NCBI GenBank assembly: GCA_903850335.1
Contig: CAINLJ010000114.1
Span: 8,742 to 72,741 of the forward strand
Source of the DNA: an uncultured Bacteroidia bacterium
GTDB taxonomy: Bacteria; Bacteroidota; Bacteroidia; Bacteroidales; Prolixibacteraceae
DNA: 64,000 nt
Direction of reading: 5' to 3'
The notes beneath the pieces are model-generated. The model was not told the DNA's origin, searched no databases, and saw nothing but the letters and a program-made list of their open reading frames with translations. Both the position numbers and the translations under genes were made by a program. This document shows positions 1,585-31,033 of the stretch, piece after piece (the first letter of the stretch is position 1; each line of letters starts with the position of its first letter).

Positions 1585-3057
1585 ATGACCACAAGAAACT
1601 TTCTGGCTTTCGATTTGGGCGCATCCAGCGGACGTGCCATTCTGGGAACAATTTCTGACAGTAAATTAAGCTTAAAGGAAATTCATAGATTTGAAAATCA
1701 AATGGTTGAAATAAATGGATCCTATTTTTGGAATATTTTCAACCTTTTCAGTGAATTAAAAACCGGTCTAAAAAAATGCATCCGTGATTTTGAGGTCCAA
1801 CCTGAATCAATTGGTGTCGATACATGGGGAGTTGATATTGTATTGCTCGACAAAAACGGAATGATTGTCGGACTACCTTATGCATATCGCGACCCACGTA
1901 CCGATACGGCAATGGCGGAAGTTTTTAAAATCATTCCCAAAAAAGAGTTGTATCTGATGACTGGCACCCAATTTATGCAGTTCAATACCCTTTTCCAGCT
2001 TCATGCATACAAACGCGATGAGTCTCCTCAGCTTGAAATCGCAAAAGACATTTTATTTATGTCCGATTCCCTGGGTTATCTTTTTAGTGGAATAAAGAAA
2101 AATGAGTTTTCAATTGCCTCCACTTCTCAATTCCTTAAACCCGGAAAACTTGAATTCGACCATAGATTATTCGATGCAATAGGATTTGATATCAATCTTA
2201 TGCAGGAATTAGTGCTTCCAGGAACAGTGCTTGGAACGATAAAACCAGATATTCAGAAAGAAACCGGAAGCAGTAACATACCTGTGGTTGCTGTCGCCTC
2301 GCATGACACCGCTTCGGCTATAGCGGCAGTCCCGGCAACAGGACGAAACTGGGCTTATATTAGTTCTGGAACATGGTCACTGATGGGCATTGAAAGTGAC
2401 TATCCGCTCATATCTGAAGAAATTCTTGCGCTGAACTTTACAAACGAAGGTGGTGTCGAAGGAACTACACGGTTCCTAAAGAACATAATGGGTCTGTGGT
2501 TACTTCAGGAATGCCGTCGTACATGGGCTAGAGATTATAATTATACCTGGCCGGAGATGGTTCAGATGGGCCTAAATGCCCAACCCTTCAAATTTATCAT
2601 AGATCCTGATGCCCATGAATTCCTTAATCCGGGTAATATGCCTGCTGCGATTGCAGGTTATTGCCATAAAACAGGACAATCTGAACCGGAGACTCATGGG
2701 GAAGTTATACGTACTATTTTTGAAAGTCTCGCATTAAAATACAGATCCACACTGGACGCGATAAGGGAGGTAAGCCCGGCAAAAATAGATAAGATTCACA
2801 TTATTGGCGGAGGAGCAAACAATGAACTCTTATGCCAGTATGCTTCAAATGCGACAAATCTTCCCGTTTATGCCGGACCCGCCGAAGCCACGGCGATTGG
2901 CAATATCATGATGCAAGCCAAGGCTTTAGGTGCCGTATCTTCGCTTGAAGAGATCCGACAGATGGTCTTTGATTCTTTCGAGACAAAAGTTTTTTACCCT
3001 CAGAATGCACAAAACTGGGAGAAGCAATATCAGGAATTTAAACGGCTTTTTTCTTAA
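1585..3057 (+). CDS. rhaB: rhamnulokinase (FGGY carbohydrate kinase family)
   Basis: 490-aa ORF. The N-terminus FLAFDLGASSGRAILG...RFENQMVEINGSYFWNI resembles Bacteroides-type RhaB. A C-terminal IIGGGANNELL motif is also present. Confidence 0.7.
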   Translation: MTTRNFLAFDLGASSGRAILGTISDSKLSLKEIHRFENQMVEINGSYFWNIFNLFSELKTGLKKCIRDFEVQPESIGVDTWGVDIVLLDKNGMIVGLPYAYRDPRTDTAMAEVFKIIPKKELYLMTGTQFMQFNTLFQLHAYKRDESPQLEIAKDILFMSDSLGYLFSGIKKNEFSIASTSQFLKPGKLEFDHRLFDAIGFDINLMQELVLPGTVLGTIKPDIQKETGSSNIPVVAVASHDTASAIAAVPATGRNWAYISSGTWSLMGIESDYPLISEEILALNFTNEGGVEGTTRFLKNIMGLWLLQECRRTWARDYNYTWPEMVQMGLNAQPFKFIIDPDAHEFLNPGNMPAAIAGYCHKTGQSEPETHGEVIRTIFESLALKYRSTLDAIREVSPAKIDKIHIIGGGANNELLCQYASNATNLPVYAGPAEATAIGNIMMQAKALGAVSSLEEIRQMVFDSFETKVFYPQNAQNWEKQYQEFKRLFS

Positions 3058-3130
3058 CAATAATTAACCTTTATTTGGCACAATATTTGGAAAAAAACTT
3101 CCTATTATTATAAATTAAAATCAGGAAAGT

Positions 3131-3613
3131 ATGAAAAGATTATATTTCGGTTTATTGTTCGTCCTATGTACAAACCTTTTGAATGCTCAGGACCAGCAAA
3201 ATGCGATCGGTGTAAGGTCAGGAGCAGGTAGTGATGGTATTGAAACTGAGATTTCTTTTCAGCATTATCTCACAGATATCAACAGGGCAGAATTCGACCT
3301 TGGGGTGATCAGGGGAAATCAATATCAGGCTTTTAATATTGCTGGATTATACCATTGGGTATGGAAACTTGATTATGGCTTTGATTTATTTGGTGGTGGA
3401 GGTGGAAGAATCGGAACATGGAGCGATTCCAAACCAAATAACGAAAAAGGAAGCGGAGGGTTTTTACTGGCCGTAGCAGGACATGTGGGCGTAGATTATA
3501 CTTTCCCGGTTGGTGTACAGCTGGGATTGGACTATATGCCACAAATTAATCTGATAAATCACGGTGATGCGCTGGCAAGTACAGTTGCAATTTCAGTAAG
3601 GTACAGATTTTGA
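3131..3613 (+). CDS. small outer-membrane beta-barrel (porin-family) protein
   Basis: 160 aa with signal peptide MKRLYFGLLFVLCTNLLNA. It shows alternating amphipathic strands, Gly-rich loops and a C-terminal ...SVRYRF aromatic terminus. Confidence 0.55.
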   Translation: MKRLYFGLLFVLCTNLLNAQDQQNAIGVRSGAGSDGIETEISFQHYLTDINRAEFDLGVIRGNQYQAFNIAGLYHWVWKLDYGFDLFGGGGGRIGTWSDSKPNNEKGSGGFLLAVAGHVGVDYTFPVGVQLGLDYMPQINLINHGDALASTVAISVRYRF

Positions 3614-3640
3614 TCCGGTAAAAAAACGGTAATTTGATAT

Positions 3641-3671
3641 AAGAAGAGGCTGATCGGATCAGCCTCTTCTT
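3641..3671. terminator. bidirectional hairpin between convergent genes
   Basis: AAGAAGAGGCTG (3641-3652) is the perfect reverse complement of CAGCCTCTTCTT (3660-3671), giving a 12-bp stem with loop ATCGGAT. It sits between the OMP stop (3613) and the elbB stop (3670). Confidence 0.55.
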
Positions 3672-4326
3672 ACATTAATCTTATCAGCTCATTAACAACC
3701 ATCTGAGTTGCGTCTGCGATTTCAATAATATGTGCATCAAGCATATAGCAAGGAGTGGTAACAAGCTTGTACTTTGGATCAACGACAACGTGTGACAGAT
3801 CTGCCTGATGATGTATGCCACCCATCTTTTCAATAACCCGGATAGTTTCAGGATCATTCCCAATGGTAACTTCAGCACCCGGTAATATTTTAACAATTAA
3901 GGCGGGAGCAATACATAAAGCCCCAATCGGTATCGAAGCCTCAACAGAGGCTATAACAGCAAGTTCTACTTCTGGATCGACCGTACATTCGCTACCCTCA
4001 AAGGCCAGGGTACACAAATTCTTTGCAACACCAAACCCACCAGGGAAAATAACAGCATCGAAAGTCTCAGGCTCAAATAAATTTAATGGTTTTATCTTCC
4101 CGCGCGTTATTCTGGCCGCTTCAACCAAAACATTACGCGTCTCATCCATAGTCTTTCCGTTCAAATGATTAATAACCTGTGCCTGTTCCTTGTCAGGAGC
4201 AAAACATTCATAACTGGCTGACGCTTTTGATATGGCAAGTAATGTTAAAGTTGCTTCGTGAATTTCGGCACCATCATAAACCCCGCAGCCGGAAAGAATG
4301 ACTGCAAATCTTTTCTGTTTATTCAT
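3670..4326 (-). CDS. elbB: isoprenoid biosynthesis glyoxalase ElbB (DJ-1/PfpI superfamily)
   Basis: 218 aa. The N-terminus RFAVILSGCGVYDGAEIHEATLTLLAI and the nucleophile-elbow context IGALCIAPAL are typical of ElbB. Confidence 0.75.
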   Translation of the reverse strand: MNKQKRFAVILSGCGVYDGAEIHEATLTLLAISKASASYECFAPDKEQAQVINHLNGKTMDETRNVLVEAARITRGKIKPLNLFEPETFDAVIFPGGFGVAKNLCTLAFEGSECTVDPEVELAVIASVEASIPIGALCIAPALIVKILPGAEVTIGNDPETIRVIEKMGGIHHQADLSHVVVDPKYKLVTTPCYMLDAHIIEIADATQMVVNELIRLM

Positions 4327-22688: not shown

Positions 22689-24794
22689 ATGTCGGGAATA
22701 CTATCACAGGATATTAAATTTCTTCCGGGCGTCGGACCGCGAAAGTCGATCATTCTGAACCAGGAGCTGAAGATTTTTACTTTGGGTGATCTGATCTATT
22801 ATTTTCCCTATAAATACGTAGACCGCACCAAATTCTATACTATTCGGGAGATTAACAGCACTTTACCCTACATTCAGATAAAAGGCAGAATAACCGGATC
22901 TGAGGTTACAGGCGTTGGCAGAAACCAGCGTCTGATCGCATACTTTTCTGATGGAACAGGAATTCTTGAACTAATCTGGTTTCAGGGTATCCGTTATGTT
23001 ACACAAACGATAAAAACCGGAATCGAATATATTGCATTCGGAAAACCGACAGAGTTTAATAATCAGTTCAGCATCGTACATCCCGAATTGGATGAAAATA
23101 CTCAGGAATCTAATTTAAAGGATGGCTTTATTCAGGCATTTTACAATACATCCGAGAAATTAAAATCAAATTTTATTCATTCAAAGAACATCCTTAAACT
23201 TCAATATACCGCGCTTCAACTTGCAAAAGGAAGTATCTACGAATCGATGCCTGCATGGCTCGTTCAAAAACTTGGAATGATTGGGCTTGAATCAGCTTTA
23301 ATCAACATCCACTTTCCGGAAAATCCGCAGGTCCTTAAAAAAGCAGAATACAGGCTTAAATTTGAAGAATTATTCTATATCCAGTTAAAATTACTTCATC
23401 TTAGAGAAGACCGTCATAAAAAATTCAGGGGTCATTTATTTACAAAGGTCGGTAGTTATTTTAATGATTTCTTTTATAATCATCTGCCATTTGAATTAAC
23501 AAATGCCCAGAAACGTGTGGTCAAAGAGATCCGGAAGGATATGGGAACTGGCCGGCAAATGAACAGACTTCTCCAGGGCGATGTAGGAAGTGGGAAGACA
23601 ATGGTTGCTCTTATGTCGATGCTTATTGCCCTGGATAATGGTTTTCAATGTTGTCTGATGGCTCCAACTGAAATACTGGCTAATCAGCATCATATTTCAA
23701 TTCAGAAGTTCCTTGGCGACATGAGTGTGAAAGTAAAATTGTTAACCGGTTCGACAAAAAAGAGTGAGCGGGCTGTAATTCATAATGAGCTACTTACCGG
23801 GAATCTTCATATATTAACAGGCACTCATGCATTACTTGAGGATATTGTCCAGTTCGAGTCGCTTGGGTTGGTAATCATTGATGAACAGCATCGGTTCGGA
23901 GTAACTCAGCGTGCAAGGTTATGGCGCAAAAATTTTATTCCGCCTCATGTTCTTGTAATGACGGCAACTCCAATTCCAAGGACCCTTGCTATGACAGTTT
24001 ACGGTGACCTTGATGTATCAGTTATCGACGAATTGCCGCCAGGGCGAAAGCCAATACATACCGTTCATTATTTCGAAAACAAAAGATTGATTGTTTACGA
24101 TTTTATTCGAAAAGAGATTGCAGAGGGACGACAGGTGTATATTGTCTATCCACTAATTTCTGAATCAGAAAAAATGGATTACAAAAATCTCGAAGAGGGT
24201 TACGAGCAGATAAAAAAAATATTTCCTCATCCTGAATACTCAATTGGAATGGTTCATGGAAGGCTGAAAGCAGCTGCGAAAGACATTGAAATGCAACGCT
24301 TTAAAAAAGGAGAAACCCAGATTCTGGTCGCAACAACAGTTATTGAAGTAGGTGTCGATGTACCAAATGCCTCTGTAATGATTATTGAGAGCACCGAGAG
24401 ATTTGGTTTGTCTCAGCTGCATCAGCTCAGAGGCAGGGTGGGAAGAGGTGCAGAACAATCGTACTGCATTCTGTTAAGTAGTTATAAGCTTGGTTCTGAA
24501 AGCAGAAAAAGAATCGAAACGATGGTCGCAACAAATGATGGGTTCGAAATAGCCGAGGCAGATATGCGTCTTAGGGGTCCCGGCGATATTGAAGGGACCC
24601 AGCAGAGTGGAATCGCATTCGACCTTAAGATAAGCAATCTTGCCAGGGATGGGCAGATTTTGCAATATGCCAGAGACATAGCCGAATCAATAATTTCCGA
24701 AGACCCACTACTTGAACAAAAACAAAATGAAATCCTGAAGAAACAATTAATTGCTCTTAGAAAAAACCATTTAAACTGGGGCTCCGTAAGTTAA
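22689..24794 (+). CDS. recG: ATP-dependent DNA helicase RecG
   Basis: 701 aa with an N-terminal wedge/OB region, Walker A GDVGSGKT, DEQH box IIDEQHRFG, and the TATPIPRT and QLRGRVGRG motifs. Confidence 0.9.
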   Translation: MSGILSQDIKFLPGVGPRKSIILNQELKIFTLGDLIYYFPYKYVDRTKFYTIREINSTLPYIQIKGRITGSEVTGVGRNQRLIAYFSDGTGILELIWFQGIRYVTQTIKTGIEYIAFGKPTEFNNQFSIVHPELDENTQESNLKDGFIQAFYNTSEKLKSNFIHSKNILKLQYTALQLAKGSIYESMPAWLVQKLGMIGLESALINIHFPENPQVLKKAEYRLKFEELFYIQLKLLHLREDRHKKFRGHLFTKVGSYFNDFFYNHLPFELTNAQKRVVKEIRKDMGTGRQMNRLLQGDVGSGKTMVALMSMLIALDNGFQCCLMAPTEILANQHHISIQKFLGDMSVKVKLLTGSTKKSERAVIHNELLTGNLHILTGTHALLEDIVQFESLGLVIIDEQHRFGVTQRARLWRKNFIPPHVLVMTATPIPRTLAMTVYGDLDVSVIDELPPGRKPIHTVHYFENKRLIVYDFIRKEIAEGRQVYIVYPLISESEKMDYKNLEEGYEQIKKIFPHPEYSIGMVHGRLKAAAKDIEMQRFKKGETQILVATTVIEVGVDVPNASVMIIESTERFGLSQLHQLRGRVGRGAEQSYCILLSSYKLGSESRKRIETMVATNDGFEIAEADMRLRGPGDIEGTQQSGIAFDLKISNLARDGQILQYARDIAESIISEDPLLEQKQNEILKKQLIALRKNHLNWGSVS

Positions 24795-24836: not shown

Positions 24837-24844
24837 TACTTTTG
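24837..24844 (+). promoter_or_regulatory. candidate -7 box (TAnnTTTG)
   Basis: TACTTTTG lies 126 nt upstream of ATG 24970. This would imply a long 5' leader. Confidence 0.3.
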
Positions 24845-24939
24845 CCACGCGAACCAATATCATATTACGAATGGACGAAGGGCCTGCGGATATATTTTTA
24901 TTAACCTGATATCACAGGAAAGCCATTCTATTGGATGTG

Positions 24940-24966
24940 CTCCTTGTAATATCACAAAGCAAGGAG
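24940..24966 (+). promoter_or_regulatory. hairpin sequestering a Shine-Dalgarno-like AAGGAGG
   Basis: CTCCTTG (24940-24946) is the perfect complement of CAAGGAG (24960-24966), with a 13-nt loop. The 3' arm is the AAGGAGGA box 3-4 nt before ATG 24970. Confidence 0.35.
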
Positions 24967-24969
24967 GAT

Positions 24970-26238
24970 ATGACATCAATCACAACATTCTATTTAAGTC
25001 GTATTGTAGGACAAAAAGTTCTCGATCATAATGGTATCTACCTCGGTACTGTCAAAGATCTGCTTGTAGATCCAGAACCTTCGACATATCCAACCGGTCA
25101 TCCTGTTGTAAAAGGGATAAAAATCAAGTATGCAAGAAATATTACATTCTATTCTTTCGAAAACTTCCATGTCGAAAAGGTCAATGGCAAATTAACAGTA
25201 ATCTGTGATCAACTCATCGAATTATCTAAAGATGAGACTAATAATAGCATGCTCCTTGTAGATGCAGTTCTTGATAATCAAATCGTGGACCTTAACGGGA
25301 GGAAGCTTGTACGTGTTAACGACGTCCGTCTGGTTACAATAAGCAGCGGAACATTCGCCGTTGCCGTAGACATCGGTATTGAAGGACTATTACGAAGAAT
25401 AGGTATCGTTAAACCGCTAAAAATTATTGTAGAATTTTTAGGTGGAACTATCCCTGCGAAATTTATCCTCTGGGAAGATGTCGAGACTATTGACTTTTCC
25501 AATCTGAATATTAAACTCTCGAAGAGTTATACAAAACTTCAGACACTACACCCTTCCGACCTCGCTGACATCATCGAAGACCTTGGACGCAAAGCGAGTA
25601 CCGAGGTTTTTTCTGCCCTCGATGACGAAAAAGCGGCGGATGTAATGGAAGAACTCGATACCGAAACCCAGGTACATATCCTCGAAAGTCTTTCGATCGA
25701 AAAAGCTGCTGATGTACTCGATAAGATGCCTGCCGATGAAGTGGCAGATATTCTGGATGCACTCGAAGACGACAAGGCAGAATTGCTCCTGAACGAAATG
25801 GAGAAAGATACATCCCAGGAAGTAAGGGAATTGCTCGTTTATCCGGATCATACGGTAGGAAGTATAATGTCGTCCGAGGTGATGTCATTTAACCAGCATA
25901 CAACAATTGAAGAGGTTCTTGCTGAACTGAGAAACCAAAAACCCGAATTCGAAACGCTCTATAACCTGTTTGTCACAGATGACAAGGATGTACTTCTTGC
26001 AACTTTCTCTATCCGTGATGTAGTTATTTCATCACCCGATGTTCAGATTAAACAAATCATGAAGCCATCGCCCGTCCATCTTCGTGATTATCAAAAAATT
26101 AATGAAGTTGCGGAAATAGTTTCGAAATACAATTTATTAGCCATCCCTGTTGTCGATAAGAAGAATGTATTAAAGGGTATGGTGGTCATCGACGACGTGA
26201 TTGAAGACTTAATTAAGAAACGCAGAACCAACAAATAA
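24970..26238 (+). CDS. MgtE-like cytosolic module (PRC-barrel + MgtE_N + 2xCBS), no membrane domain
   Basis: The N-terminal region (LSRIVGQKVLDHNGIYLGTVKDLLVD) is PRC-barrel-like. An acidic helical MgtE_N region follows (LHPSDLADIIEDL...EKAADVLDKMPADEVADILDAL), then a CBS pair. The protein ends ...LIKKRRTNK with no TM segments. I prefer ATG 24970 to the track TTG at 24931. Confidence 0.75.
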   Translation: MTSITTFYLSRIVGQKVLDHNGIYLGTVKDLLVDPEPSTYPTGHPVVKGIKIKYARNITFYSFENFHVEKVNGKLTVICDQLIELSKDETNNSMLLVDAVLDNQIVDLNGRKLVRVNDVRLVTISSGTFAVAVDIGIEGLLRRIGIVKPLKIIVEFLGGTIPAKFILWEDVETIDFSNLNIKLSKSYTKLQTLHPSDLADIIEDLGRKASTEVFSALDDEKAADVMEELDTETQVHILESLSIEKAADVLDKMPADEVADILDALEDDKAELLLNEMEKDTSQEVRELLVYPDHTVGSIMSSEVMSFNQHTTIEEVLAELRNQKPEFETLYNLFVTDDKDVLLATFSIRDVVISSPDVQIKQIMKPSPVHLRDYQKINEVAEIVSKYNLLAIPVVDKKNVLKGMVVIDDVIEDLIKKRRTNK

Positions 26239-26248
26239 CCATTGAGTT

Positions 26249-27499
26249 ATGTCAAAAAATAAAAAATCCATTTTCCAAAAGATCGGTTTATTTCTGGCAA
26301 TTCTTGGTCCCGGAATAATCACCGGTAGCGTCGATAATGATGCAGGGGGAATTACTACCTACTCAGTGGCTGCTGCTATCTATGGCTATAGCCTGATCTG
26401 GACTCTCATCCCTTCATTTATAGTACTTGTAGTGATTCAGGAAATGAATGCGCGTATGGGTATTGTTACCGGCAAAGGCCTTGCTGACCTGATTCGTGAA
26501 AATGCAGGAGTGAAAATAACATTCTTCATATTTATTGGACTATTAATTGCAGATATAGGAAATACGACGACCGAATTTGCAGGTGTGGCCGGAAGTATGG
26601 AAGTCTTTGGAGTAAGTAAATATATTTCGGTGCCCATAGTTGGTTTCATGGTCTGGTTTTTAGTTGTTAAAGGAACATATAAGATAGCAGAACGTATCTT
26701 CCTGTTATTCAGCATCTCGTTACTTATGTATGTTGTGTCTGCCATAATGGGGAAACCACATTGGGGGGAAATTGGACATTCAATTATTCATCCGCAGATG
26801 GAACTCTCAGCCAGGAGTATCTCCATGGTTATCGGTATTATTGGAACAACAATTGCTCCCTGGATGCAGTTTTACATGCAATCGTCTGTGATCGAAAAAG
26901 GATTGAAGATGAAGCAATACAAATACACCCTGATCGACATCATTGTAGGATGTGTCGCCACTGTTGTGGTAGCATTCTTTATAATGGTAGCCTGCGCTTC
27001 GACCCTGCATGAAAACGGCGTGCAAATTAACGAAGCAAAAGATGCCGCACTGGCTCTTAAACCACTTGCCGGAGCTTTCGCCTCACAGGTATTTGCATTT
27101 GGGCTCTTTATTGCATCAATATTCTCGGCCACTATATTACCACTTGCGACTGCATTTTATGTCTGTGAAGCCTTCGGATTTGAAGCTGGCATAGATAAAA
27201 AGTGGAGTGAAGCTAAAGAATTTTATATTCTTTATACAGGCATTCTGATCGTGGGAGCAGCTATTATCCTGATCCCCCAAGCCCCTTTAATCCTGATATC
27301 CCTGTGGTCGCAAATAATTAACGGGATGCTTTTACCTGTTGTCCTGATCTGCATGATTCTATTGGTTAATAACAAAAAAATCATGGGGAAATATGTAAAT
27401 AAGCTCACCAACAATATCATTGGATGGGGTGCAGTAATTATCCTTATTGCATTGTCCTTAATTCTTTTATTGATGCCTGTGTTTGGAGGGGGAAATTAA
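26249..27499 (+). CDS. NRAMP-family transporter with NRMT-like (Mg-type) site substitutions
   Basis: 416 aa with ~11 TM segments. The TM1 motif reads D31-A-G-G where canonical NRAMPs have DPGN. The TM6 motif reads A203-P-W (GTTIAPWMQFYMQS) where canonical NRAMPs have MPH...LHS. It starts 10 nt after the upstream gene. Confidence 0.8.
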   Translation: MSKNKKSIFQKIGLFLAILGPGIITGSVDNDAGGITTYSVAAAIYGYSLIWTLIPSFIVLVVIQEMNARMGIVTGKGLADLIRENAGVKITFFIFIGLLIADIGNTTTEFAGVAGSMEVFGVSKYISVPIVGFMVWFLVVKGTYKIAERIFLLFSISLLMYVVSAIMGKPHWGEIGHSIIHPQMELSARSISMVIGIIGTTIAPWMQFYMQSSVIEKGLKMKQYKYTLIDIIVGCVATVVVAFFIMVACASTLHENGVQINEAKDAALALKPLAGAFASQVFAFGLFIASIFSATILPLATAFYVCEAFGFEAGIDKKWSEAKEFYILYTGILIVGAAIILIPQAPLILISLWSQIINGMLLPVVLICMILLVNNKKIMGKYVNKLTNNIIGWGAVIILIALSLILLLMPVFGGGN

Positions 27500-28988
27500 T
27501 ATTAATACTCTTGGTTCAAAATTCAGCATTCCCTTATTTTGTATATTCAACTCAGGAATATTAGCAGAAATGTGATAGATATTGGTCCTGAATGCATCAC
27601 TTAAATTCAAACTGAACGTATTATTTTCGTTCCTCGATTTCATTTGAAGACCAGCAGAAACTGAACTTATGCAGCTGCTCTTGCATACCCCCCAAAGTTA
27701 AGGAGACTGATAAAATCCAGAGAGTTCACCAGAAAGCCTTTCCCCGATTTTAAAATTATTGATTATATTGATATTGAAATTCTTAAGGCTTAAATCTATT
27801 TTCTGACCATCGTAAAAAGTTTTAACATTTTGAACAATACCATTCATATTATTCTGAATATTCCACCATCCGGTAACATTTACAGGGAACGCAATCATGA
27901 AAGACGTTGTAGTCACCTTATCAAGATTCCTTGATAACATGTAAAGAATATTTTTCACAGTATCCTGCCTTGGCTGGAAACGGCGGATGGCGTTGTTTTC
28001 TACAGTATGCGTAAGAGAAAACAGTACCGTTTTATACCTGTAATCTGTTTTGAGAATATCACTAATGGATGGTTGAAGTTTTTCATTTCCGGCAAGGTAG
28101 GTATCAGGTGATTGAAAAACGATAAAAGGTTCCAGTTCATTGAAGGAAGGCCGGGTTATCCTGCGGCTGTATGAAAACTGAAGGGTACCGCTCTTTGTAA
28201 GATCATGAGATAAAAATAATGTAGGAAAGAGTTCTTCATAGTGCTGGTCAATAATGCCATGCTGTGTTTGTGTATTCAAAACCGTGTTAGTGTATTCATA
28301 ACGAAGTCCTGCAAACATGCTGGTTTTAGGATTAAATTTAAAGTTTACAGATGAATAAACGGCATTGATATCCTCATGTAATGAATATTTATTTGTTAGA
28401 TCCTCATTAAATTTCCAGACCCAGGCAATCTGTTTGGCAACACTGACATCATTTTCAAAAGCGGTATTGGTATGTTTGAGTCCGGCTTCAAATTTGGTAT
28501 CCTTTCCTAAGTTCCGGGAATAATCTAATTTCGAAACAAAAGTATTTATTGGATGGTGGTGTAGTGATAAGTTCGATCTTTTTGATGTTCTCTGAACTCA
28601 TGCTGCTTAACATTTCGATCGCAGAAGTCAGAGGCATCTGAGTTTCCTTCCCGTTAATCATCCGCACGACACCTTCCTTCCCACCAAGAGAAACCGTTTT
28701 ATTTTGACGATTTGCAATTACTCCCGGAGATCTCTCCAAAACATCAAGGGCCGTGCTTCCAGCAGAGGTAATACTTTTATCAACATTGACTACCAACCGG
28801 TCAATCTGTTGCTCATAAACAGGCTTTTTTGCAACAATATCAACATTCTCCAAAAGTTTAGAATCCTCTTCAGCTACAAGAGGAGTAACATGGATATGAT
28901 CTTTTGGGCTTAGAATTTCAAACGGTTGCGAATACAACATCCGTAATGCACATTTGTTGCGGTTCGTTCGTTCCAAAAGTACTACCAC
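27467..28988 (-). pseudogene. decayed TonB-dependent-receptor-like outer membrane beta-barrel (OMP_b-brl_3 type)
   Basis: The plug-like piece (EEDSKLLENVDIVAKKPVYEQQIDRLVVNVDKS...IKKIELITTPPS) shifts frame near 28540 into a barrel piece (KLDYSRNLGKDTKFEAGL...GLRYEYTNT...). An in-frame TAA sits at 27698-27700. The same frame then continues for 76 barrel-like codons (LWGVCKSS...SAGLQMKSRNENNTFSLNLSDAFRTN...). The N-terminal ~100 aa and ~200 internal aa are missing. Confidence 0.7.
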
Positions 28989-29007: not shown

Positions 29008-29679
29008 CTATATCTCGGAAGGTAAGGAAAAGAGAGAGGTGAAATTTTTATAGATTTGATATTTAAGAAAATCCAGTGGAAGGTCAAGTGTTTTGGACAT
29101 TTGGTCATAGATGTCCTCAATGGGCGTTTTAGCTTCATCAGTCTCAAGAAAAAGTGAGGTTAACGGAATCATTCGGATCGCTTCAAGCAATCGTTGCGAA
29201 GGATTCAAAATCGATTTACCTACTGAAAAATAACATCCCAGACCGATCAGTTGTCTTGTAATTATGGCACCTTCAGAATATCCGTGTAAAACACACGGAA
29301 CCTTGGATCGCTTAAGAAAAGGCATAATCTCATTCCATGATCTTACTGAATGAATTATCAATGGAACCTGATGAGTTTCAGCGAAAGTGATTTGTAACTG
29401 AAAAATATTTTTCTGAATGTCAAAATCAACCTGACATACCTTATCCAAACCTGTCTCTCCAACGCCAATGAATTTATTGTTGGAAAGCAGACCGTCAAGC
29501 ATCTCAAGTATCTCTTTATCAGTAAAATTATCAGCGTGCCACGGATGGATAGCTGAAGTAAAGAACGATTTTATGGGATCTTTGAAATCCAATTCTTCAA
29601 GGTGAAAACTCTGAACTGATATGATATCATCAGATGTTCTTGAAATGTGGGTATGTATATCAATAAATGGTATAGTCAA
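29008..29679 (-). CDS. TatD-family metal-dependent hydrolase
   Basis: 223 aa with IDIHTHI, GETGLD, IIHSVR, LHGY and LETD motifs in the canonical order. Confidence 0.75.
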   Translation of the reverse strand: MTIPFIDIHTHISRTSDDIISVQSFHLEELDFKDPIKSFFTSAIHPWHADNFTDKEILEMLDGLLSNNKFIGVGETGLDKVCQVDFDIQKNIFQLQITFAETHQVPLIIHSVRSWNEIMPFLKRSKVPCVLHGYSEGAIITRQLIGLGCYFSVGKSILNPSQRLLEAIRMIPLTSLFLETDEAKTPIEDIYDQMSKTLDLPLDFLKYQIYKNFTSLFSLPSEI

Positions 29680-29755
29680 ATCTTTTTTGTATCATTTTTT
29701 CAAAAGTAATTGTATTTTTAGAAAAATAACTGATCAAAACCATGATGATTAACAG

Positions 29756-30418
29756 ATGACTGAAATAATTATTAGTGAAAACATTAAAAAAAGAATTCCC
29801 CATTTATCGCTGGGTTGCGTTGAATGTAGGGTTGATATTTTAGAAGAGAATCATGATTTGTGGCAGGAGATTGATGCAGTTAGCAGGGTTCTTTCTTTAT
29901 CGGCTGAACTTTCAGATGTAGGCAGCCATCCGGCAATCAGGGCGTCAAGGCAGGCGTATAAGGCTTGCGGAAAGGACCCTGCGAGATACCGCCTTTCTTC
30001 CGAGGCTTTGATGCGACGGATTGTCAAAGGGAATCAATTGTATAAAATCAATAATGTTGTCGATCTTGTCAACCTTGTCTCTTTGAAATCCGGGATGTCA
30101 ATAGGTGGTTATGATGCGGATAAGATCAGGGGGTTAGTGAGCTTTGACATTGGCCTTAAGGACGAGCCTTACGAAGCAATCGGAAGAGGAGAATTGAACA
30201 TTGAGAATCTTCCGGTATTCAGGGACAATTTGTCCGCTTTTGGTTCGCCAACAAGTGATTCCGTTCGCACCTGTGTTACCTCAGGTACAAGAAAATTCTT
30301 AATGATTATAGTTGGATTTTCAGGGTCTGTACAAACAAACCTGACATTAAATCTGGCTTTAAGTCTTTTAGAGAAATATGCCAATGCCGGAGAAATAGAA
30401 ACTATTTTAGTCAAATAA
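29756..30418 (+). CDS. B3/B4 (PheT-like tRNA-binding) domain protein
   Basis: 220 aa. HPAIRASRQAYKACGKDPARYRLSSEALMRRIVKG...INNVVDLVNLVSLK matches the stand-alone B3/4 family as recalled. Confidence 0.6.
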   Translation: MTEIIISENIKKRIPHLSLGCVECRVDILEENHDLWQEIDAVSRVLSLSAELSDVGSHPAIRASRQAYKACGKDPARYRLSSEALMRRIVKGNQLYKINNVVDLVNLVSLKSGMSIGGYDADKIRGLVSFDIGLKDEPYEAIGRGELNIENLPVFRDNLSAFGSPTSDSVRTCVTSGTRKFLMIIVGFSGSVQTNLTLNLALSLLEKYANAGEIETILVK

Positions 30419-30442
30419 TCAGGATGTTCCTCTCTAATGAAT

Positions 30443-30450
30443 TAATTTTG
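30443..30450 (+). promoter_or_regulatory. candidate -7 box (TAnnTTTG)
   Basis: TAATTTTG lies 20 nt upstream of ATG 30470. Confidence 0.35.
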
Positions 30451-30469
30451 CACAATAATTAATGTTTAA

Positions 30470-31033
30470 ATGATGAGATATTTTACAAAATTTCTATTGT
30501 GGCTAACAGGATGGAAAATAATAAGCGGGGTCGTACCTGTTCCCAAATGTGTGGTCCTTGGTGTTCCACATACGTCAATCTGGGACTTTGTTGTTTCATG
30601 GATGTTCTATAAATCCATTGGCGGAAAGCCGAATATCGTTGTAAATAAAAAATTCTTCTTCTGGCCAGCTTGTTATCTGATGAACTACATGGGTGCCATT
30701 CCGGTGGATACTGCAAGAGGAGCAAGTCTTGTAAAGCAGATCATGTCAGAATTTAAAAAAAGGGAAATCCTCCATTTGGCCATTGCTCCGGAGGGAACAC
30801 GTGAGCCAACAACAAAATGGAAAGGCGGTTTTCATACAATTGCCCGCGCGGCCAATGTCCCGGTGTTCTGCGCTGTCTTCGACTGGGGTCGCAAGGAAAT
30901 AGGCATATTGGACCAAATAGAACTTACGGATGATTTAAATGCTGATATGCACCGAATCAAACAATGGTATAAAGACCGGGGAGTAAAGGGGAAATACCCT
31001 GAAAAGTTTATCCTGGGTGAAGGGTTAGATTAA
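30470..31033 (+). CDS. lysophospholipid (PlsC-family) acyltransferase
   Basis: 187 aa with an N-terminal TM, an HxxxxD box (HTSIWD) and a downstream APEGTR motif. Confidence 0.6.
   Translation: MMRYFTKFLLWLTGWKIISGVVPVPKCVVLGVPHTSIWDFVVSWMFYKSIGGKPNIVVNKKFFFWPACYLMNYMGAIPVDTARGASLVKQIMSEFKKREILHLAIAPEGTREPTTKWKGGFHTIARAANVPVFCAVFDWGRKEIGILDQIELTDDLNADMHRIKQWYKDRGVKGKYPEKFILGEGLD

Follow-up and report, generated by a model that had tools for sequence, protein, structure and literature searches.

An mgtE-nramp operon of Bacteroidota with an NRMT-type transporter, a separate MgtE-like partner protein and a conserved 5' leader

A contig of an uncultured Bacteroidia bacterium of the family Prolixibacteraceae (GenBank assembly GCA_903850335.1, contig CAINLJ010000114.1) holds, within a stretch of 64,000 nucleotides referred to here as the window, two adjacent genes: gene 1, encoding a soluble homologue of the cytoplasmic domain of MgtE, and gene 2, encoding a transporter of the NRAMP-related Mg transporter (NRMT) type from the SLC11/NRAMP family. 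NRMTs constitute the fourth class of bacterial Mg2+ importers. The region is best explained as a single transcription unit in which a promoter and a structured leader precede gene 1 and gene 2, and the identities assigned to both genes are almost certain. The favoured interpretation, to which we give a probability of roughly 0.55–0.6, is that the gene 1 protein exerts a Mg2+-dependent inhibition on the gene 2 transporter in trans. It is supported by the near-universal adjacency of the two genes, the conservation of Mg-site acids in the gene 1 protein, the presence of an M-box before 10 of 11 Bacillota loci, and the conservation of the NRMT site residues. The pair is a further Bacteroidota example of a known operon type, since a 2014 paper had already described the arrangement and put forward the hypothesis. 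What is new here is the near-universality of the pairing, the two PRC-type repeats of the partner, the way in which some MgtE metal sites are retained and others lost, and a Bacteroidota-specific leader. Of these, the leader has the best prospect of containing something novel.

Gene 2 had been assigned to the NRMT type by an earlier, sequence-only reading of this DNA, and profile searches bear this out. The Pfam Nramp profile spans the protein over positions 1–356 of 357 (E 2.3e-95), and the best match in the PDB is EleNRMT from Eggerthella lenta (7qia, E 1.7e-108; other entries 7QIC, 7QJI, and 7QJJ), compared to 8.7e-27 for the best canonical MntH. Both proteins align without gaps over 404 aa with 44% identity, and the motifs on which that reading was based, D31-A32-G33-G34 and A203-P204-W205...M210-Q211-S212, occupy the columns that hold the metal site and alpha-6b of EleNRMT. 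The number of 11 transmembrane helices derives from homology and a crude hydropathy profile.

Seven site residues of gene 2 (D31, G34, E109, T200, A203, W205, and Q355) are identical to D55, G58, E133, T224, A227, W229, and Q379 of EleNRMT, all of them singled out by structure or mutagenesis in the main text of Ramanadane et al. 2022 (PMC8806188), and these residues vary little or not at all among 69 NRMTs. The alpha-1 motif D-x-G-G keeps the Asp and holds Gly in the place of Asn, with the D31 and G34 positions invariant in 69 relatives. In alpha-6, a Thr replaces Ala (T200) and an Ala replaces the soft-metal Met (A203), while the Gln of alpha-10 is kept (Q355). The counterpart of T200, EleNRMT T224, is described in the same text as critical for Mg2+ and less so for Mn2+ (PMC8806188). 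Both alpha-6b His positions are non-protonatable in gene 2 (W205 and M210), the second being Met in gene 2 but Asn in EleNRMT, and E109 is kept as in that protein. EleNRMT carries Mn2+ as well as Mg2+ (PMC8806188 among the sources), and the literature describes NRMT-mediated movement of both metals as not coupled to protons. By analogy, gene 2 is best explained as an NRMT-branch carrier for the uptake of Mg2+ (and Mn2+). In public databases, NRMT relatives are named "MntH" or "Mn transporter".

Gene 1 precedes gene 2 by 10 nt (26239–26248), both open reading frames (ORFs) lying where the sequence-only reading had put them, and Pfam profiles and hydropathy agree with its description of a PRC-like N-terminus, an MgtE_N domain, and a CBS pair, ending in KKRRTNK and lacking transmembrane helices. 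That observation is confirmed in every checkable detail. The gene 1 protein holds no hydrophobic stretch (maximum KD19 1.51) and has no match to the Pfam MgtE transmembrane domain, and the TIGR00400 mgtE profile covers it only at positions 19–253 of 450, with 164 bits against a cutoff of 232.75. The best 120 relatives of gene 1 are nearly all 422 aa long (401–438) and show no Pfam match to the MgtE membrane domain. Net charge over aa 189–295, the region of the MgtE_N domain, is −22. Among PDB entries, the cytoplasmic domains of MgtE match the gene 1 protein best (2yvy, E 1.5e-32), and Foldseek, queried with an AlphaFold2 (AF2) model of gene 1 otherwise used for domain boundaries only, returned MgtE and CBS proteins, with the CBS domains of CorB/CorC among the weaker matches and nothing informative for the PRC-type half. 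An in-frame TTG at 24931 was rejected as the start of gene 1 because it lies inside the conserved non-coding leader and the relatives begin at the ATG. Relatives of gene 1 carry varied public names, such as "magnesium transporter", "magnesium transporter MgtE", "CBS domain-containing protein", and "flagellar motility protein MotE / YlmC".

The "PRC-barrel-like N-terminus" of the sequence-only reading is present, although it is not a minor feature but a module of ~185 aa with two PRC-type repeats. The first repeat matches Pfam PRC at aa 5–36 with 26.7 bits, first-repeat scores ranging over 26.7–31.7 bits against the Pfam cutoff of 21.2, and the same profile is matched by 37 of 39 diverse partners. 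A PDB profile search retrieved proteins with PRC barrels as well as the H subunits of reaction centres (E ~0.01). The second repeat (aa 96–188) is probably a diverged PRC barrel, as suggested by the profile–profile alignment of the first and second halves of the module with hhalign (probability 73%, E 3.2e-5), which is the sole support for it. The confidence of the AF2 model is low over this repeat, which is nonetheless the best conserved part of the module: D102, Q104, R115, N117, D118, D134, G139, R142, and R143 do not vary among 39 partners that come from many phyla. A module of 174–196 residues is found in 70/70 of the upstream, same-strand partners matching all three parts of gene 1; one further partner sequence, clipped by a contig end, stands outside these 70.

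The C-terminal half of the gene 1 protein (aa 190–414) aligns with the MgtE_N domain and CBS pair of MgtE from Thermus thermophilus (PDB 2YVX and 2YVY), whose Mg2+ ligands were tested by mutation in Maruyama et al. 2018. Mapped through a pairwise alignment with the cytoplasmic domain of that protein, D224 of gene 1 corresponds to E59 (site Mg7), D256 to D91 (Mg4), D260 to D95 (Mg6), D409 to D247 (Mg4), and E412 to D250 (Mg5), whereas D226, another Mg5 ligand, is replaced by N388. The ligands of Mg4, Mg6, and Mg7 are therefore retained in gene 1. Across 73 partners, the D95, D91, and D247 columns hold Asp in 71, 63, and 66 sequences, respectively, and the E59 column holds Asp or Glu in 60.

In contrast to these sites, the plug helix of MgtE, with its acidic residues E255, E258, and D259 (sites Mg2 and Mg3), is missing from gene 1 together with the five-helix pore domain and the pore Asp. 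The position of the plug helix is occupied by a basic tail. The retention of the Mg4, Mg6, and Mg7 ligands and this exchange of the plug helix indicate that the module that closes upon Mg2+ binding has been kept, and that the element that couples it covalently to the pore has been replaced. Since the pore and the plug helix are absent and a PRC-type module has been added, gene 1 does not encode an MgtE channel, despite some of the public annotations. The C-terminal tails of 72 partners are mostly rich in Lys and Arg, with one acidic subclade (L030, L031, L037–L039, L041, and L045). In one of its members, L030, the NRMT shares 69% identity with gene 2 and the partner only 27% with gene 1, which suggests either a replacement of the partner or a much faster divergence.

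The sequence-only reading also raised the question of whether the pair is conserved elsewhere. A scan of one genome per species, seeded with a 9-sequence NRMT alignment (a diverse 36-sequence alignment was too divergent to serve as a seed), yielded 80 loci, of which four were left out of the count since their contigs end at the NRMT gene. A gene with PRC-type, MgtE_N, and CBS parts adjoins the NRMT gene in 73 of the 76 evaluable loci. In 70 loci the partner is the immediate upstream neighbour, has the same strand, and matches all three parts of gene 1, typically at a distance of 0–30 nt or overlapping. Two more loci have an upstream partner with one match missing, L067 at a contig end and L044 with no intact NRMT ORF called. 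In two deltaproteobacterial loci, L060 (2922–3224, minus strand) and L081 (6321–7637, minus strand), the partner is convergent, downstream of the NRMT gene and on the opposite strand, so that the adjacency outlasts the loss of co-transcription. L081 also contains a second NRMT copy at 1–1281. Besides two metagenome-assembled genomes (MAGs) labelled archaeal, the set covers Bacteroidota, Ignavibacteriota, Bacillota, Omnitrophota, Nitrospirota, Acidobacteriota, and Desulfobacterota, and in all more than 10 phyla. The loci closest to gene 2 (87–90% identity) belong to Prolixibacteraceae and Mariniphaga MAGs, an affiliation that puts the window in Bacteroidota.

The same arrangement is found next to the closest relatives of the structurally characterized transporter. 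Eggerthellaceae proteins that are 91–93% identical to EleNRMT have a gene for a PRC/MgtE_N/CBS protein of 447–450 aa located 4 nt upstream (genes at 2644–3996 and 4001–5296 in contigs L202–L205). A gene of the Rrf2 family lies convergently downstream in these contigs. The structural work on EleNRMT used the transporter by itself, without a partner, according to the main text of that study (PMC8806188).

Pairwise identities of partners and transporters correlate (r = 0.75). In a Desulfosporosinus locus from Bacillota (L021), the NRMT is 75% and the partner 51% identical to the window pair, and the NRMTs of this locus, of an Alicyclobacillus (L028), and of a member of the Spirochaetaceae (L027) are 68–75% identical to gene 2. 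As identities between phyla are far above the expectation for vertical descent, horizontal transfer of the operon is indicated, and the pair seems, from these comparisons, to travel between phyla as a unit. The M-box riboswitch (RF00380), taken as a positive control, was detected ahead of the operon in 10 of the 11 Bacillota loci examined with 91–151 bits (L021, L028, L036, L040, L043, L044, L046, L048, L051, and L055), and relatives with 66–75% identity to gene 2 are preceded by it. In L048, the M-box lies directly before an NRMT gene that has no partner gene.

The operon type was described, and NrmT defined, by Shin et al. 2014 (PLoS Genet, PMC4072509), whose passages on NrmT proteins introduce the term "mgtE-nramp operons", report that most nrmT genes adjoin a gene for a homologue of MgtE's N-terminal cytoplasmic domain, and speculate that this MgtE-like fragment serves for a cytoplasmic feedback regulation of transport or as a metal chaperone. 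The pairing and the idea of regulation had thus been published when the sequence-only reading took the two-component arrangement as uncharacterized, and in this point it does not hold. As in the window, the MgtE-cytoplasmic-domain gene of those operons (Ca_c0685 and Ca_c3329 from Clostridium acetobutylicum, and Acp2976-Acp2977 from Acidobacterium capsulatum) lies immediately upstream of the Nramp-related gene, and the feedback hypothesis is the same. The window operon differs from them in its origin from Bacteroidota, the lack of an M-box, the presence of a conserved leader outside Rfam, and an unsplit gene where the C. acetobutylicum gene is split. The corresponding passages name the partner solely as a homologue of the MgtE cytoplasmic domain, and do not mention PRC (PMC4072509). 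A term search of the main text of the EleNRMT paper (PMC8806188) retrieved neither CBS nor operon, and MgtE only as an unrelated Mg2+ channel, and MgtE and CBS were not found in the searched portions of one phylogenetic paper by Cellier and of a 2026 Nramp preprint. In the literature searched, no paper was found that joins NRMT with CBS or PRC-barrel with MgtE, nor any after 2014 that takes up the partner protein.

The mechanism favoured here extends the published feedback idea. Gene 2, by analogy with EleNRMT, would not be proton-coupled, and uptake would consequently be driven by the membrane potential; the transporter would have no cytoplasmic sensor of its own. A carrier driven in this way needs a brake, which is the reason to favour feedback. 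The gene 1 protein is expected to be soluble and cytoplasmic, and probably a dimer as in MgtE, with a C-terminal half that would act as the MgtE Mg2+-sensing module and an N-terminal half of two PRC-type repeats. The PRC-type module, the basic tail, or both might dock it to the transporter's cytoplasmic face or to the membrane. Upon a rise in cytosolic Mg2+ (perhaps Mg-ATP), Mg2+ would bridge the interface between the N domain and the CBS pair at the equivalents of Mg4, Mg6, and Mg7, and the compacted sensor would inhibit the transporter, providing the kind of feedback control that is an integral part of CorA and MgtE. The brakes of these two systems are cytoplasmic domains of the same proteins (introduction of PMC4072509). 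The logic is also that of the CorA funnel domain and the CBS pairs of CNNM/CorC and CorB, where a cytoplasmic sensor shuts a Mg2+ pathway, with the difference that the sensor would in this case be a polypeptide of its own, and that the transporter is a LeuT-fold carrier. What the data show are the identities of the genes, the site residues, the adjacency, and the conservation of the leader, whereas we infer the interaction, the sign of the regulation, and the ligand. The trans-acting sensor of the sequence-only reading is accordingly reasonable as an inference, and strengthened by the adjacency, the Mg-site acids, and an uncoupled uniporter lacking a sensor, although it is not new.

Several points weigh against this inhibition. 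A physical interaction or a regulatory effect of the partner has been demonstrated nowhere. CabNRMT and EleNRMT function without it, according to the relevant passages of both studies (PMC4072509 and PMC8806188), so the partner is not required for transport. Co-expression of the A. capsulatum pair in a Mg2+-transport-deficient B. subtilis did not improve rescue, and the A. capsulatum transporter rescued Mn2+ uptake in the same set of experiments (PMC4072509), in which two Clostridium NrmTs rescued Mg2+ transport. The negative co-expression result, scored only as rescue over a gradient of 0–5 mM Mg2+, does not test inhibition, because an inhibitor would not be expected to give a better rescue at low Mg2+. 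Within the partner itself, one Mg5 ligand is Asn instead of Asp in most sequences, and Mg2 and Mg3, the sites of the plug helix that link sensing with the pore in MgtE, are absent. Three loci have upstream room but no partner. No fusion of an NRMT with MgtE_N/CBS occurs among the best 150 of 789 strong representatives, all of them of at most 484 aa, and support for an interaction from natural fusions is thus lacking. Finally, the AF2 model of gene 1 is moderate (pLDDT 65).

The likeliest alternative, although an unlikely one, is that the partner acts as a positive or structural accessory subunit that, instead of inhibiting the transporter, stabilizes, assembles, or activates it in the native membrane, whether this depends on Mg2+ or not. 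In reaction centres, PRC barrels serve as modules for protein docking, EleNRMT reportedly needed stabilizing mutations for structural work, and the tight, near-universal adjacency and the co-variation of both proteins would fit such a subunit as well. However, a purely structural role leaves the conservation of the Mg-binding acids unexplained, the Clostridium NrmTs and EleNRMT transport without the partner, and rescue was not improved in the single published co-expression test (PMC4072509).

More doubtful is the view that the pair serves mainly for the uptake of Mn2+ or of mixed metals, with the partner sensing Mn2+ or, for instance, adenine nucleotides through its CBS pair. MgtE CBS domains bind ATP (PDB 5x9h, which is among the structural matches of gene 1), EleNRMT transports Mn2+ besides Mg2+, a defect in Mn2+ transport was rescued by the homologue from A. 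capsulatum despite its adjacent MgtE-like gene (PMC4072509), and the M-box is missing from the window as well as from the Bacteroidota and Eggerthellaceae loci. Against this, T200, the counterpart of the Mg2+-critical T224, is invariant, relatives with 66–75% identity to gene 2 are under the control of M-box Mg2+ riboswitches, and the conserved acidic ligands of the partner are those of the Mg2+ sites of MgtE.

The metal chaperone or buffer that Shin et al. raised as an alternative (PMC4072509), a cytoplasmic protein that takes or stores cations instead of gating, is improbable. The strong acidity of the MgtE_N domain would suit it, but what is conserved are the interface ligands and not the general acidity, and these, together with the PRC-type module, suit a conformational switch better. 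Cellular Mg2+ is at millimolar levels, for which no chaperone is needed. That both genes are merely co-transcribed neighbours with unrelated functions is highly improbable, having nothing in its favour beyond the absence of direct interaction data, and being at odds with a pair that is kept in bacteria and archaea, persists in the two convergent loci that are not co-transcribed, and is apparently mobile as a unit, as in L021.

Upstream of gene 1, the window holds a leader instead of an M-box. The covariance model of the M-box gave no match at E ≤ 1 in the window between 24000 and 28000, nor any in 13 Bacteroidota loci and two Eggerthellaceae loci, and the leader matches no Rfam family. It lies downstream of a TAnnTTTG box, a probable promoter element that we take to be the Bacteroidota −7 consensus and that is found 133–153 nt 5' of the ATG in most Bacteroidota loci. 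The leader may also be delimited as ~120 nt (24850–24969), or as 24838–24972 when the promoter box is included. A covariance model built from ten sequences found one match per locus in 26 sources, all Bacteroidota-type loci, always directly upstream of a gene 1 homologue and nowhere else in 847 kb. A scan of metagenomes with a 14-base pattern from the leader was far less specific, with 4 real leaders among 120 matches and the rest due to chance.

Two helices can be recognized in this leader (Table 1). In the model-fitted alignment, 81.4% of their cells are paired, compared to 72.9% in shuffled alignments (0 of 500 reaching the observed value) and 47–64% in slid controls, and double changes are seen in 10 of 14 pairs against 4.5 expected. 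As the fit to the model biases the pairing figures upwards, support for both helices is only moderate. The window leader folds with −32.3 kcal/mol (z −2.9). RNAalifold found essentially nothing on a MAFFT alignment, which is not structure-aware, and this result was superseded by the covariance model. Two further helices were considered and rejected. An "anti-anti-SD" helix, in which the invariant 5' block would pair with the strand opposite the Shine-Dalgarno (SD) sequence, is unsupported (70% paired against 65% in shuffles and 57–59% in slid controls), and a P1 helix closing the 5' block, hinted at by individual folds, appears in inconsistent registers and is not claimed. The first of the two would have made the leader a simple switch.

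The second helix involves an unusually strong SD-like sequence. Gene 1 alone among the 39 long ATG-started ORFs of the window has such a sequence at −20 to −3 (AAGGAGG at 24961–24967), which is longer in relatives and reads AAGGAGGTGA(T). The window has lost 3 nt here, so that GGAGG and the ATG are only 2 nt apart. Bacteroidia ribosomes have been reported to be SD-blind, with the extended SD of rpsU as a known exception, and the leader resembles rpsU in holding a strong SD in an SD-blind lineage. A connection of this sequence with ribosomes free of bS21 is only a lead. The leader could act on translation by hiding or exposing the SD, with either Mg2+ or the fraction of bS21-free ribosomes as the input, or it may be a site to which a protein binds. 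That it is an undescribed cis-regulatory RNA of Bacteroidota in the role that the M-box plays before the same operon in Bacillota, forming with the partner protein a two-layer control at the translational and post-translational levels, is a tentative proposal that we consider possible but not probable.

Table 1. Features of the operon and its leader, with coordinates in the window
Feature	Position	Strand	Description and basis
Probable promoter −7 box, Bacteroidota type	24838–24845	+	TACTTTTG = TAnnTTTG; TACTTTTGC invariant in 9 close relatives
Conserved 5' leader	24869–24969	+	Alignments, covariance model, fold energy
Invariant block ATGGACGA..CCnGCGR	24871–24889	+	Single occurrence in window
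Small hairpin CCTG/CAGG	24905–24918	+	Covarying
Hairpin of GCTCCTTG with SD-like CAAGGAGG, just before ATG	24939–24946 with 24960–24967	+	Alignments, covariation
Gene 1	24970 (ATG)–26238	+	422 aa ORF, soluble protein
PRC-barrel domain	24970–25254 (aa 1–95)	+	Pfam PRC; AF2 pLDDT ~80–88 over aa 10–90
Second, probably diverged PRC-like repeat	25255–25533 (aa 96–188)	+	Motif LD.QIVD..G.K.VRVND ... D.G..GLLRR.G
MgtE_N acidic helical domain	25546–25848 (aa 193–293)	+	Pfam MgtE_N, E 1.7e-24
CBS pair	25858–26211 (aa ~297–414)	+	Two stretches matching Pfam CBS (E 3.7e-14)
Basic tail IKKRRTNK, net +5	26212–26238 (aa 415–422 and stop)	+	Alignment to MgtE extended by hand
Gene 2	26249–27499	+	416 aa ORF, NRMT-type SLC11 transporter

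The genes on both sides of the operon do not resemble metal homeostasis genes. Upstream, at 22689–24794 (plus strand), a helicase-like ORF of 701 aa unrelated in appearance to this function is, presumably, RecG, as judged from its sequence. On the 3' side of gene 2, at 27698–28988 (minus strand), there are two consecutive ORFs of 206 and 166 aa, the first matching the OMP_b-brl_3 profile at positions 132–337 of 408 only; the pair looks like a fragmented gene for an outer-membrane beta-barrel (TonB-dependent-like), possibly a pseudogene or the product of a sequencing frameshift. Farther downstream (29008–31033), a TatD-family DNase, a B3/4-domain protein, and an acyltransferase are encoded, none of them metal-homeostasis-like.

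The survey presents the partner as an almost obligatory companion of NRMTs across bacteria and archaea, and the partner bears on the question of what prevents these uncoupled carriers from overloading the cell. The names given to the relatives of gene 1 and to those of the NRMTs are both misleading for annotation. The near-constant presence of the partner, its two PRC-type repeats, and its retained interface ligands and basic tail provide concrete residues and constructs for functional work. If the proposal on the leader is true, the operon would place an uncoupled Mg2+ carrier under translational as well as post-translational control.

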